Part shown: piece by piece, positions 10,943 through 13,900 of the stretch
Layout: every line of letters begins with the position of its first letter
Numbering within the stretch: position 1 is the first letter of the stretch
DNA from: a virus
Direction: 5' to 3' (one strand)
Length of the DNA stretch: 64,000 nucleotides
Virus record (IMG/VR): IMGVR_UViG_3300021962_007022
Span: 4,245 to 68,244 of that record
Notes under the pieces: generated by a model
Told to the model about the DNA's origin: nothing
The model's input: the letters and a program-made list of their open reading frames with translations, nothing else
Database searches by the model: none
Made by a program: the position numbers and the translations under genes

Positions 10943-13900
10943 CTAGTTATTTATAATAACAGTTTCATATGTTGTTTGAATGGCTGTATCATAATTTGTG
11001 TCTGTTGCCTTATCGGTTATTCTAGATGTGGAGGTTGACTTAGATGTACCAACCATTGTACCAGCTCCAAAATCTGTCAAGTAAGCAGTAGATGTATCAA
11101 ATGCTGTAGCAACAGACGTTGTTCTAGTTGTATCAATTACTAATTCAGATGTGTCTGTATTTGTTAATAATTGTGTTAGTCGTGCTGTTTGTCTGTCACC
11201 AGATTCAAATACGGTTGCAGTTTCTACAGAGGTAAGTGTCTGATATTCAGTGTTTCTAATACTGAAGTCAATAACTGTTGTTGTGTTGACAGATGTTAAA
11301 AATACCGTTGCACCACTTGATGTGGTATACTGAGTTTCTGTACCATATGAAGTAGATGTTGATGTATTAATTAGTGTGCCCTGGTTTGTTTGTGTAGCTG
11401 TCGACTTACTTGTCAACATATCACTAATAGTTACAGTAGTAGTGTTAAATGATGTGATGGTGCCAGTGAATGTATTTCTAGATGTGCTAACTAATGTACC
11501 AGCGCCTGAATCAGTCTGGAATGTAGTAGAAGTACCTCTGGCTGTATCAGTATTGACCGTAGTTGTTGTAGCAAATTGTGTAATCTTACTAGAGCCTGTA
11601 ATTCTTGCTGTTTCTGTAACATATGCAGTTGATGTAGTTAAGAAAGTTGCTGTATCTCTTGTTGTTGCAAGACCAGTGCTATAAACAGTATCAAATGCTG
11701 TAGTTGTTGCTTTTTGAGTTAGTGGACCTGTGGTATATATTGTATTGTATGCTGTAGTTGTGCTCTTACCAGATGTTGTCAACGTATCTTTAGATGTACC
11801 AAATTCTGTAAACACTGTTGGATAAACTGTTAGTGTGCTCTTAGATGTACCATAAGCAGTTGTTACAAATGGATCTGTAGCAAACGCTGTTGTAAACACT
11901 GTAGATGTTTGCTTACCACTTACATATCTTGTGTATCTTGTTATTGTATTCTGAGATGTATCCTTTAACGTACCACCACCAGAGTCAGTCTGGAATGTGG
12001 TAGCTGTAGATATCACTGACTGTGTAATTAGATAAACAGTGTCAAATGCTGTTGTAGTATTCTTTGTTGTATTGAATAGCGTACCGCCACCAGCAGCTGT
12101 CTGGAATATTGTTTCTGTAGTCTTAGATGTGCCAAAAGATGTAAGAGCTTGGGTTTGTCTGCTTGTATCAATTACGGTTGAGTAAGAAGACAGATATGAT
12201 GTTGTAGTGTTAATTGTTGATTGATACTCAGACAGATATACTGTTGTTGTATTCTTAGAAGTACTTGTTAGAGCAATAGTTTGACCAGCAACTGTATTTT
12301 TTGTTGTGTCATACATTGAAGCTGTAGTCTTAGATGTTAGAAAGTATGTACCACTTGCTGTTATAGTAGTTTTTGTTGTTGAAGTTGTCTTATTTGTGTT
12401 TGTGGAAATACCTGTTGAGGTTGTCTTAGATGTACCAATTAATGTACCAGCCCCTGAATCAGTCTGGAATGATGTTGTTGTATCAAACACAGAAGATGTC
12501 TGGAATATAGTTTGTGTATTGAATGTAGTAGTTGTATCATATGCTGTACCCACAACAGTTTCAAATACAGTCTCTGTACCAAAACTACTTGACATCAAGT
12601 ATTGAGTTTCAGTGCTGTTGGTTGTATCAATTGTAGTCAATCTAGCTGTAACAGTTGATTTTTCCACAGCTGTAGCTTTAGTAATAAGAGACGATGTGTC
12701 CTTCAATGTACCAGCACCAGAGTCAGTCTGGAAGACAGTCTGGTATGTTGTGTTAATATGGGTTACTGTATTTTTGGCGGTATCATAAGATGTTGTAATA
12801 ACAGATGATGTTGATGTTGAAGTGCTTTTACTTGTTGATGTTGATTTAGATGTAGCTAAAGTAGAATCAAACACTGTATCAAAAATTGTTGCCAAACTAC
12901 TTTGTGTTGTCTTAGTTGTGTTATATGCTGTACTACGTCCTGTTAACGTATTGAATGATGTTGTAGTATCAGTTGATGTGGCAATATCAGTAACTTTAGA
13001 TGTTCCTACTAAAGTGTTGTAATGGCTCAATGTGCTCTTGCCAGTAATTGTTGTTGTAGTTTTGTTTAGTGTAGTTGCAAAGCTAGTTAGGAATGATGTC
13101 GAGCTGTCAAATACTGTTGTTTGATTTGTACCTCTTTTTGTATCAAATACTGTTGTCTCAGTTGTTGATGTGTTGAACTGAGTTGTGCGAGATACTGTAG
13201 CAAAGTTACTAACGTAAACTGTTTGACGAGTTACACTTGTAGGCTTGAATGTAGCTTGAGAAGTACCAAAGAAGGTTAAAATCTCTGTACCCTTTGACAA
13301 AGTTGTATTTCTAGATGTAACCTGGCTTGTATCAAATGTTGATACAGTTAAGAATGCTGTAACAAATAGAGATGTCGTTGTTGCATTTGTATCATATCCC
13401 GTATCATACGTTGTTGTTGTATTTGTCTGATAAGAAGACGTTGTTGTTCTAGATGTGCCAGTAGCAAAAATTGTAGATCTACTTGTATCAAATACTGTTG
13501 AAGAAGTTACCAGAGTATTACGAGAAGTTGATGATGTTACAACTGTTAATGTATTAAATGCACTTGTTGTATCATATACAGTTGTTGTTGCTGTATCAAA
13601 TACAGTAGATGTATTTTTACTTGTAGCATATGCTGTGCTAAATGTTATATAACGTGTAACTTGGTTTGTATTATATGATGTTTGGAATAATGTTGTTGTA
13701 GCAATTAATGTTGGGTTTGTTGTCTGGAATGATGTATCCCTTAGAGTATTTCTTGTTTCAAGAGCAAATGAGGTATCAGTAGTTCTACCAGTTAAAATAT
13801 CTGTTGAAATAGTTGTTAAGACACCAGCAATTGTTTCATATGTTGTTTGGATGTTAGTGCTAAACAATGTTTGTGTAACAACAATTCTATACTCTGTTAG

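Follow-up and report, generated by a model that had tools for sequence, protein, structure and literature searches.

An antiparallel pair rule in the C-terminal part of a threonine-rich putative baseplate fibre from an uncultured T4-like phage

Residues 1173-2154 of the threonine-rich protein P0001 probably, though with real room for doubt, constitute a branched proximal segment of a fibre made from one folded-back chain and carried on the baseplate wedge protein gp7. This reading draws on a pair rule that was learned on the main stalk of the protein and applied to the C-terminal 982 residues, where it identifies a second fold-back stem of 144 pairs, termed stem-loop 2, that is highly significant and conserved as a pattern in the sequence. 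The last 600 residues carry six copies of a glycine motif and candidate hairpins of more modest score. The window is the whole stretch of viral DNA analysed, 64,000 nucleotides of IMG/VR record IMGVR_UViG_3300021962_007022 (positions 4,245 to 68,244 of that record), and its positions are used in Table 1.

The fibre gene and the pair rule of its main stalk

The P0001 ORF starts straight after that of the gp7 core, the two overlapping in an ATGA, and, judging by this gene order, its product would be attached to gp7. Pfam and PHROGs gave the identities of the neighbours, and the split of gp7 core and fibre into two ORFs is also kept in relatives. A programmed -1 frameshift at the junction was considered and set aside: the C_CCG_GGT heptamer is present in three of five sequences, the start/stop overlap in all five. 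The sole Pfam match in P0001 is Gly_rich_2, on aa 513-725 (35.3 bits against a gathering threshold of 24.3), and in L004-L006 this apical domain is exchanged for short unrelated segments. Pfam identified no trimerisation or chaperone domain in P0001, and no Pfam, PHROG or NCBIfam model matched residues 1173-2154, a region of 32.4% Thr, 12% Ser and 0.5% Pro. The window also carries genes for sugar-type methyl- and carbamoyl-transferases; no glycosyltransferase is among the Pfam hits for 27 of its ORFs.

Searches with the C-terminal region returned next to nothing. Blastn and tblastn against 50,697 phage records gave no match, a word-indexed protein search with residues 1173-2154 left none of 8000 candidates at E<=0.001, and a HMMER profile of the same residues recovered a single 91-aa fragment from 1.84 billion representatives. 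There were no hits among PDB sequences at E<=10, the best ESM Atlas score (0.81) was at chance level, and PHROGs and NCBIfam gave nothing for P0001. A literature search at the level of titles found no account of a fibre of this design.

Table 1. Features of P0001 and the adjoining gp7 core (window positions)
Feature	Residues	Position	Strand	Basis or remark
Thr-rich baseplate fibre gene P0001	1-2154	10943..17407	(-)	ORF list and translation; 2154-aa ORF between gp7 core and gp8
Region under study	1173-2154	10946..13891	(-)	982 aa of P0001
gp7 wedge core	661 aa	17404..19389	(-)	stop codon overlaps fibre start codon (ATGA)
Main stalk, outgoing arm	46-500	15908..17272	(-)	outside studied region; source of pair scores
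Gly-rich domain, stalk apex	513-725	15233..15871	(-)	Pfam PF21722
Main stalk, returning arm	736-1190	13838..15202	(-)	last residues overlap start of studied region
Stem-loop 2, outgoing arm	1257-1400	13208..13639	(-)	ungapped pairing with 1548-1405, i+j=2805
Stem-loop 2, tip	1401-1404	13196..13207	(-)	diagonal centre 1402.5; tight turn without Gly motif
Stem-loop 2, returning arm	1405-1548	12764..13195	(-)	ungapped pairing with outgoing arm
Motif copy 1	1559-1568	12704..12733	(-)	regex match; paired +6/+6 insertion either side in L004, L017
Candidate hairpin capped by motif 2	1608-1700	12308..12586	(-)	i+j=3308, ungapped score 25.5
Motif copy 2	1647-1656	12440..12469	(-)	regex match; tip of best tight-loop hairpin
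Alternative gapped stem	1645-1789 vs 1831-1979	11471..12475	(-)	marginal; conflicts with motif-2 hairpin
Motif copy 3	1768-1777	12077..12106	(-)	regex match; alignment with relatives; variant FQTAAGGGTL
Motif copy 4	1805-1814	11966..11995	(-)	centre of gapped 132-pair model; tight-loop score 13.6
Candidate hairpin	1850-1911	11675..11860	(-)	tight-loop score 16.6; tip aa 1878/1879 is the cassette site
Motif copy 5	1963-1972	11492..11521	(-)	regex match; alignment with relatives
Motif copy 6	2109-2118	11054..11083	(-)	flanked by paired -6/-6 deletion (L006) and -2/-2 deletion (L005)

When residues 64-500 of the main stalk are set opposite residues 1172-736 without gaps (i+j=1236), 48 of the 437 positions are aromatic-basic pairs, a fraction of 0.110 against 0.013±0.014 (z=6.9; one of 494 antiparallel offsets), and the best parallel control reaches 0.057. 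The same register contains 118 Thr-Thr pairs and no pair of Lys/Arg with Lys/Arg, places 49 of the 53 paired Lys/Arg opposite an aromatic, and is retained in all five full-length sequences. The ungapped pairing spans aa 46-500 versus 1190-736, with the arms stopping exactly at both borders of the apical domain, 500 and 736. Pair scores were learned on this stalk alone and then applied to residues 1173-2154, so that the scores come from the same protein but from a different region of it.

Spacings between key residues are mostly 4 and 6, the order of the repeat units is irregular, and no repeat period besides 2 was found, the autocorrelation peaks being sums of 4 and 6. Two regular architectures were rejected: a fixed-coil beta-solenoid, for which there is no long-lag period, and a meander turning at each TSK, since by inspection of the sequence consecutive Lys/Arg are very unevenly spaced and neighbours are unmatched.

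Stem-loop 2 and the candidate stems beyond it

The initial annotation had proposed that the code of the stalk continues through the C-terminal part as stem-loops with a recurrent glycine turn. The first half of this proposal holds, in that a separate fold-back stem of 144 pairs is present; the tip of this strongest stem, however, is not a Gly turn. Stem-loop 2 includes 16 aromatic-basic and 32 Thr-Thr pairs, and 16 of its 19 Lys/Arg lie opposite an aromatic. It scores 53.5; when the large residues were permuted 40 times, the best null scores averaged 23.9±3.3 and went no higher than 32.3 (23.0±3.4 where the null is gapped), and averaging over eight sequences raises the separation to 62.4 against 19.5±2.6. 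All eight sequences keep the stem, with 13-19 aromatic-basic and 32-37 Thr-Thr pairs each. Partner swaps that keep the rule are seen opposite Tyr1463, where Ala, Val or Lys may stand, and in L021 (49% identical) there are double losses in which an F-K pair becomes T-V, Q-I or R-V.

For residues 1549-2154, where multiple stem-loops had been predicted, the outcome is mixed. A hairpin capped by the second motif copy leads the scan for tight loops, with an eight-sequence score of 20.7 (rank 1) against permutation maxima that average 13.4 and reach 19.0 at the largest. The other stems are marginal, and two of the models conflict: the long gapped stem, which claims the same residues as the motif-2 hairpin, scores 25.0 against a null of 18.6±3.1 with a maximum of 25.4 (25 permutations), and comprises 132 pairs of which 10 are aromatic-basic, 33 Thr-Thr and 3 clashes. 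The best ungapped stem in the segment, at 30.9, lies at the null maximum of 31.0 (100 permutations), and the tight-loop scan likewise shows peaks of 10-15 within the stem-loop 2 arms, where they are necessarily false.

It had further been suggested that C-terminal segments pair with the main stalk. The diagonals that would represent such pairing score 36-37, inside the off-register noise of the stalk (35-57), and thus lend the suggestion no support; the test is weak, in that edge-to-edge packing need not obey the same pair rule. Structure prediction neither supports nor contradicts the fold-back model: AlphaFold2 runs on overlapping fragments gave mean pLDDT values of 26.8 for residues 1240-1565 (7 sequences as input) and 26.9 for 1520-2154 (8 sequences), the former model containing one hairpin inside stem-loop 2 that is off the register i+j=2805. 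The hairpin turns that the latter places at YVSGKQ, TSSGAT and FESGDR are of low confidence and were given no weight.

The glycine motif and the pairing around it

The pattern [FY][QL]T[DA].G[AG]GT[LM] has exactly six matches in the protein, at aa 1559, 1647, 1768, 1805, 1963 and 2109, and the starts of their G[AG]GT cores (window positions 12718, 12454, 12091, 11980, 11506 and 11068) agree with all six copies first reported at about 12715, 12455, 12090, 11980, 11505 and 11065. The five other Gly turns named with them are likewise present, once each, at aa 1192 (TIAGVL), 1705 (TVAGQT), 1828 (YVSGKQ), 2029 (TSSGAT) and 2067 (FESGDR). The motif stands at identical alignment columns in four relatives, and across eight sequences there are 49 occurrences representing 43 distinct 36-mers. 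Its recurrence is not due to chance. An RTX-type calcium-binding beta-roll was rejected as an explanation: the consensus of such rolls is a tandem array of GGxGxDxUx nonapeptides, and here the motif reads T-D-S-G-A-G-T-L, occurs as single copies 37-158 residues apart and has no Pfam hit.

Among relatives, gain or loss of the motif takes the form of a clean 12-residue cassette, one such cassette being present at aa 1878/1879 in L003, L004, L005, L017 and L020. There are in addition three paired symmetric indels, one of +6/+6 at motif 1 and two, of -6/-6 and -2/-2, at motif 6. These paired indels, together with the top rank of the motif-2 hairpin among tight loops, support a role of the motif in capping hairpins. 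Within the motif, T2 can pair with T8 in every one of the 43 distinct occurrences and T(-2) with T12 in 41. If the loop is closed by T2-T8, the partner of F0 at +10 is compatible in 35 of 43 and the next pair breaks, being K-T in 24; if it is closed by T2-T12, F0 meets Lys/Arg at +14 in 26 of 43 by a hand count. The pairing register around the motif varies between copies.

Two local examples of complementarity given in the initial annotation can each be placed in a single register: F1629, F1635, F1641 and F1647 opposite K1679, K1673, I1667 and K1661 (i+j=3308), and F1182, I1186 and Y1190 opposite R1208, I1204 and I1200 (i+j=2390). The generalisation of these examples to the Gly turns as a class did not survive comparison with shuffled sequence. 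Stems of at least three keys number 10, against 10.1±3.8 after shuffling, and at the 11 turns 8 of 44 pairs are aromatic-basic against 11.5±2.8 (P(>=obs)=0.93). Residue-level mirror and aromatic-basic scores show no excess over background at 10 Gly turns, TIAGVL being omitted as too close to the start of the region. Nussinov-style folding, proposed as a check, returned 54 for the real sequence and 54.0±0.0 for the shuffled ones; it saturates in both and cannot discriminate. A long-range antidiagonal scan found that the stems are long and lie mostly off the Gly turns. As far as sequence can tell, the pair code is real, yet it is mostly not centred on these turns.

A fold-back fibre, its alternatives and known systems

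It is proposed that the chain is composed of phi-x-T units, whereby one face of a strand would alternate large residues and Thr, and that two stretches of it pair antiparallel, residue by residue. Thr would face Thr, every Lys/Arg would lie opposite Phe or Tyr, and an aromatic might instead take Ile, Val or Leu. The main stalk, of ~450 pairs, would arrive back at its base near residue 1196 and be followed by the second hairpin (1257-1400 with 1548-1405), for which 0.33 nm per residue gives a length of ~48 nm, after which the last 600 residues may fold into a series of shorter hairpins. The 10-residue FQTDSGAGTL would serve as a self-contained hairpin cap that is inserted, deleted or swapped as a cassette in relatives. 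The physical form is likely to be a two-stranded beta ribbon and the chain would be a monomer, given that the DLP6 clade of phages fuses the same type of tail to gp7, which in T4 is present as one copy per wedge. Such a structure could act as a long, thin appendage for host sensing or tethering, with branches leaving one junction near the baseplate. The branched, cloverleaf-like beta architecture first envisaged gains from the second stem and from a plausible common junction, since the tip of stem-loop 2 and the stalk base are close in sequence, but for 1549-2154 the two pairing models conflict. The more extensive claim, that the single chain is a branched appendage of some 150 nm or more made wholly of rule-registered fold-back two-stranded ribbons with insertable cap cassettes of 10-12 residues, is put forward tentatively and stands at somewhat less than an even chance.

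Alternatively, the complementarity could lie between chains, with two or more antiparallel copies pairing arm to arm, and a constant i+j is equally expected from an antiparallel homodimer. This is quite unlikely, given that the arms of stem-loop 2 are joined by a tip of 4 residues, that those of the DLP6 tail are only ~24 residues apart, that the stalk arms end at the apical-domain borders, and that the paired indels are symmetric about a motif inside one chain. An ordinary trimeric fibre, of the triple beta-helix or beta-spiral kind, would explain the in/out alternation by a threefold core and the antiparallel match as a by-product of repeat grammar. It is consistent with the established trimeric state of most phage fibres, with the very high period-2 power (57-85 in the stalk arms, 18 in the C-terminal part) and with the irregular order of units, as in many trimeric fibres. 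Nevertheless, a trimer would put Lys/Arg in the core, the off-register and parallel controls drawn from the same repeats carry no signal, the signal is lost on permuting the large residues, period 2 alone is found rather than a regular period such as 8 or 15 residues, and the DLP6 clade tail is fused to gp7, all of which make this origin very unlikely.

It is also conceivable that the C-terminal hairpins pack on the stalk base or on each other, giving a wider sheet or bundle and a compact end domain in place of free branches. Ribbon edges leave backbone groups unpaired, the stalk base, stem-loop 2 and the last 600 residues all begin near one junction, and period-2 phase slips are commoner in the C-terminal part; set against these points is the C-terminal versus stalk comparison described above, itself a weak test, and packing of this kind is regarded as unlikely but deserving of some weight. 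By comparison, it is hard to credit a mucin-like, sugar-coated or disordered Ser/Thr stalk without a fixed fold. The Thr and Ser content of the region, the AlphaFold2 pLDDT of 27 and the sugar-type transferase genes would suit it, yet positions are conserved besides composition (in 154 of 171 columns the Thr two places beyond a large residue never varies), dN/dS over the C-terminal 982 aa is 0.11-0.17 against four relatives, Pro is scarce, the Pfam hits for 27 ORFs of the window lack a glycosyltransferase, and a disordered chain gives no reason for a residue-by-residue antiparallel match.

If the fold-back reading is correct, a monomeric fibre of hairpins hundreds of residues long, governed by a readable pair rule, would represent a new design for long thin proteins, known phage fibres being parallel trimers, and a rare case in which long-range beta pairing is legible from a single sequence. 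It would be to proteins what stem-loops are to nucleic acids, could in principle be designed with nothing more than the sequence, and would offer protein design a natural template for programmable beta ribbons. For phage biology it would point to a baseplate appendage that has so far gone unnoticed in a group of uncultured T4-like phages and whose tips and caps can be exchanged. A tail of the same kind in a cultured phage, Stenotrophomonas phage DLP6, already puts the idea within reach of experiment.

The closest known system is gp7 of that phage (vB_SmaS-DLP_6; AMQ65900.1, 'baseplate wedge subunit protein'), which bears a Thr-rich C-terminal extension and was compared here together with four metagenomic relatives (P0004, P0006-P0008). 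The Thr-rich gp7 of this clade occupies the same slot of the baseplate module, gp6 to gp8, and its core is 44-51% identical to the present one across two segments. Four of the five proteins have tails of 32-34% Thr built from the same phi-x-T units, and units of the P0001 type also occur in P0004-P0007. Tail against tail, BLASTP reports 34% identity (E=3e-22) over a heavily gapped alignment, a match that composition may drive. The antiparallel aromatic/basic and Thr/Thr match is present in three of the four clade proteins tested: residues 706-962 of DLP6 gp7 against 1243-987 form 257 pairs, 35 of them aromatic-basic, with a score of 162 against 38.5±9.8, and two DLP6 relatives score 162 against 49.7±10.8 and 144.5 against 45.3±9.7. 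The two systems differ in that the clade tail is fused to gp7 and forms one hairpin of 253-268 pairs with a globular domain at its base, whereas here the tail is a separate ORF, with three or more hairpins and the globular domain at the apex. The FQTDSGAGTL motif, present in six copies here, is absent from all 64 longer gp7 homologues. The portion of the DLP6 paper that was consulted contains no discussion of the Thr-rich tail.

More distant parallels come from other elongated or beta-hairpin proteins. Short designed or natural hairpins such as the GB1 hairpin and the tryptophan zippers, of 12-16 residues, have cross-strand aromatic-Lys/Arg and Thr-Thr pairs; the same kinds of pair, on one face of a two-stranded sheet, are proposed here, but for arms of 144 and ~450 residues with the rule kept over their full length. 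To our knowledge, two-stranded ribbons this long have no precedent. SasG of Staphylococcus aureus has beta sheets of a single layer and hardly any hydrophobic core. It is described as a monomer that forms a very extended rod and lacks covalent cross-links (PMC4458895). The proposed fibre would share this monomeric, elongated form, although SasG is assembled from repeated small domains (G5-E repeats) with three-stranded sheets, the fibre would be a single chain doubling back along hundreds of residues, and Pfam indicates no sequence relation between them. Phage fibres are usually trimers, and the T4 proteins gp34 and gp37 and the triple beta-helix of gp5 are parallel homotrimers. Like the fibre proposed here, these are long, thin, beta-rich host-recognition appendages of T4-like phages with irregular repeats; in contrast to their parallel trimeric arrangement, the evidence here favours antiparallel pairing within one chain.

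Stalk register and a second stem

The C-terminal 982 residues (1173-2154) of P0001, the Thr-rich baseplate fibre ORF, contain 32% Thr and 12% Ser, and 171 of the 297 large residues (F, Y, I, L, V, K or R) have a Thr two positions downstream (+2). The spacing between consecutive large residues is mostly 4 or 6, aromatic units being mainly of length 4 (83 versus 35 of length 6) and Lys/Arg units mainly of length 6 (55 versus 21 of length 4). Relatives are encoded by five viral and ten metagenome contigs (record sets that partly overlap), and four of them share 74-87% identity with these 982 residues. 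The dN/dS of 0.11-0.17 indicates purifying selection; of 171 columns, 154 keep the +2 Thr in every sequence and 101 keep the large residue itself. Over residues 45-2154, Lys/Arg occurs at lag 4 after an aromatic at 2.3-3.9 times expectation and is rare at lag 6, while an aromatic follows Lys/Arg at lag 6 at 2.7-4.3 times expectation; at lag 4 the latter is rare in both stalk arms (0.35-0.39 times) and reaches 1.7 in the C-terminal part. Given this asymmetry, Lys/Arg rungs would have one Thr rung more than aromatic rungs.

An ungapped scan of the N-terminal stalk arm against the reversed middle arm, over 494 offsets, identified a single outstanding register, i+j=1236, in which 48 of 437 positions are aromatic-basic pairs (z=6.9); the parallel control peaked at about half this fraction. 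The register also holds 118 Thr-Thr and 23 aromatic-aliphatic pairs and no Lys/Arg-Lys/Arg pair, 49 of 53 Lys/Arg residues lie opposite an aromatic, and almost all pairs are of one parity, equivalent to one face of a sheet. It is centred on residue 618, in the middle of a Gly-rich domain at whose borders the arms stop, and is conserved in all five full-length sequences with 44-50 aromatic-basic pairs in each, the differences being mostly exchanges between Lys and Ile/Val facing an unaltered aromatic. As a property of the sequence, residue-by-residue antiparallel complementarity within one chain is established, which is conserved and in which partner swaps obey the pair rule. This protein shares its Gly-rich apical domain with relative L003, whereas L004-L006 have unrelated short segments in its place; the central region is 321 aa here versus 147-194 aa in L004, L005 and L006, and the flanking arms are ungapped.

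The initial annotation proposed that this code continues into the C-terminal part as stem-loops built on a recurrent Gly turn. The stalk pair counts were converted to class log-odds and all antidiagonals of the C-terminal 982 residues were scanned, which identified an ungapped stem of residues 1257-1400 against 1548-1405 (stem 2; i+j=2805). Its score of 53.5 compares with a best null stem of 23.9±3.3 (maximum 32.3) in 40 permutations of the large residues, or 23.0±3.4 with gaps permitted, and the average over eight sequences is 62.4 versus 19.5±2.6. Among the 144 pairs are 16 aromatic-basic and 32 Thr-Thr, 16 of 19 Lys/Arg lie opposite an aromatic, and the stem is conserved in all eight sequences; in L021, the most diverged relative at just 49-52% identity, both partners are lost jointly at three F-K rungs. 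Given that stem 2 is significant and conserved, the code does continue into the C-terminal part. However, this clearest stem is not at the Gly turns: its tip is a tight turn at 1401-1404 without a Gly motif.

Glycine turns and candidate short hairpins

The six copies of the FQTDSGAGTL-type motif and the five other Gly turns (TIAGVL, TVAGQT, YVSGKQ, TSSGAT and FESGDR) lie exactly where the initial annotation placed them, and the motif is conserved at all six sites in the aligned relatives; L021 is without it at three of the six. L003, L004, L005, L017 and L020 have a seventh copy, inserted cleanly behind residue 1878 as a block of 12 residues, at the tip of a candidate hairpin, 1850-1911, that scores 16.6. 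The L021 sequence (3-5033) carries a recurring alternative cassette, [FY]RDTALDTD[VI]TT, in five copies and one variant (counted by eye), one copy being held in a 105-residue insertion after residue 2096.

It had been suggested that complementarity also surrounds some of the Gly turns. For the turns as a set this does not hold: aromatic-basic flanking key pairs at the 11 turns number 8 of 44, with 11.5±2.8 expected, and the residue-level mirror test is flat for 10 of the 11 (one was dropped, being too close to the region start). The proposed Nussinov-style folding was run and separates neither way, because every real and shuffled key string hits the maximum; stems of at least three aromatic-basic key pairs number 10, against 10.1±3.8 in shuffles.

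For motif-capped hairpins in the last 600 residues, the evidence points both ways. The local example given for motif 2 does resolve into one register, i+j=3308, spanning 1608-1700. In the eight-sequence scan this hairpin has the highest tight-loop score, 20.7, next to 20.5 for the stem 2 tip, where the null maximum per permutation averages 13.4 and is at largest 19.0 (12 permutations). Peaks of 10-15 also arise within the stem 2 arms, so scores in that range are unreliable. Three symmetric paired indel events flank motifs: L004 and L017 share +6/+6 at motif 1, and at motif 6 L006 has -6/-6 and L005 has -2/-2, the 6-residue pieces carrying Phe on one side of the motif and Lys on the other. It is possible to draw longer stems in the last 600 residues, but neither of the top candidates rises above its null maximum: the highest ungapped score is 30.9, and a gapped stem of 132 pairs around motif 4, which shares residues with the motif-2 hairpin, scores 25.0.

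Across 43 distinct motif occurrences, T2-T8 pairs are found in all 43, T(-2)-T12 pairs in 41, and F0 lies opposite Lys/Arg or an aliphatic at +10 in 35; the T2-T8 register breaks at the next pair, which is K-T in 24. In an alternative register F0 is opposite Lys/Arg at +14 in 26 of 43 (manual count), and this suits motif 2 better, so registers vary among the motif copies. The AlphaFold2 check, run on 7- and 8-sequence alignments, returned mean pLDDT of 26.8 and 26.9, too low to inform on the fold. In summary, the reading in the initial annotation is supported in part: at the level of sequence the stem-loops of the C-terminal part are real, the Gly motifs probably cap short hairpins, and a free cloverleaf is at most a possible arrangement.

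Baseplate locus and neighbouring genes

The viral record that contains the window is 68 kb, with completeness estimated at 42%. Within P0001, Pfam matches a single family, Gly_rich_2 (residues 513-725); PHROGs and NCBIfam gave zero matches, and PDB sequences and the Atlas no match either. The gp7 core and fibre ORFs overlap in ATGA. In the flank 17300-17520 the gp7 core ends in ...YIGDGSTTTFAIPGGA and the fibre begins MSTLTVKVNGVLQVLGTDYT...APSADALVEI, which we take to resemble one small beta domain divided between two ORFs. A -1 slippery-like C_CCG_GGT is present at this junction in only 3 of 5 sequences. Taken together, this suggests coupled translation, and the fibre may be anchored via strand complementation.

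Features of the window
Feature	Coordinates	Strand	Remark
T4-type baseplate module		-	tail-tube cap, gp53, gp5, gp25, then gp6, gp7 core, P0001, gp8, DUF4815
gp6	19389-21188	-	baseplate module
gp7 core	17404-19389	-	661 aa; baseplate module
gp7/fibre ORF overlap	17404-17407		conserved in 5 of 5 sequences; GTGA in one
P0001	10943-17407	-	2154-aa ORF, between gp7 core and gp8
Gly-rich apical domain	15233-15871	-	
gp8	8869-10920	-	baseplate module
DUF4815 protein		-	1945 aa; same baseplate module
Peptidase_S74 ORF	1-1098	-	intramolecular chaperone domain (2.3e-15); extends past window end
TonB-type ORF	48853-50910	-	685 aa; barrel domain of TonB-dependent receptors (1.8e-33), Plug domain (4e-20)
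tRNA genes	36097-56248	-	26 genes
tRNA-Thr	54496-54571		anticodon TGT, matching ACA
TylF-like O-methyltransferase, 2 further methyltransferases, 2 carbamoyltransferase-N ORFs	39632-40911, 45063-45797, 57961-60651	-	

Of the 318 Thr codons for the C-terminal 982 residues, 212 are ACA. The TonB-type ORF is situated among the phage's tRNA genes, so the phage itself appears to encode an outer-membrane receptor. The methyltransferase and carbamoyltransferase ORFs are predicted sugar- or small-molecule-modifying enzymes, and the Peptidase_S74 domain marks a putative fibre or spike of the conventional, trimeric type within the same phage.

Proposed architecture and comparison with known systems

Among cultured phages the closest is Stenotrophomonas phage DLP6, with 46% identity in gp6; its gp7 (1288 aa) unites the gp7 core and a Thr-rich tail in one protein, whereas here these are two separate ORFs; the available part of the DLP6 paper does not discuss this tail. 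Among 64 longer gp7 homologues collected with the gp7 core, five have a Thr-rich tail of at least 490 residues, and none of the 64 carries the FQTDSGAGTL motif. With the stalk-derived pair scores, a single long ungapped hairpin was identified in three of four fused proteins tested: DLP6 gp7 (706-962 against 1243-987; 257 pairs, 35 aromatic-basic; 162 versus 38.5±9.8) and the DLP6-like P0004 (162 versus 49.7±10.8) and P0007 (144.5 versus 45.3±9.7); P0008 has none by the same scores. Since three fused tails of this independent clade obey it, the pair rule is, judged from their sequences, not peculiar to a single protein but characteristic of such gp7 tails in general.

Each antiparallel match would form a two-stranded beta ribbon, with Thr-Thr and aromatic-Lys/Arg rungs on one face and small polar residues on the other; short designed hairpins rely on the same cross-strand pairs. 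A rise of ~0.33 nm per residue would make stem 2 ~48 nm and the stalk ~150 nm long. The chain would exit the gp7 core, extend to the swappable apical domain, come back to the base near residue 1196, and then form stem 2 and a cluster of shorter capped hairpins, and the probable role of this long appendage is to sense or tether the host. The T4 baseplate has one gp7 copy per wedge and, given that the DLP6-type tail is fused to this single-copy protein, the fibre chain is likely monomeric.

To our knowledge, known phage fibres are parallel trimers, and the literature searched gave no description of a comparable fibre; if the physical fold follows the sequence code, this would be a new kind of fibre. 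Nearest to it are the DLP6-type gp7 tails, and a functional analogy may be drawn with SasG, which is described as a monomeric elongated rod (PMC4458895).
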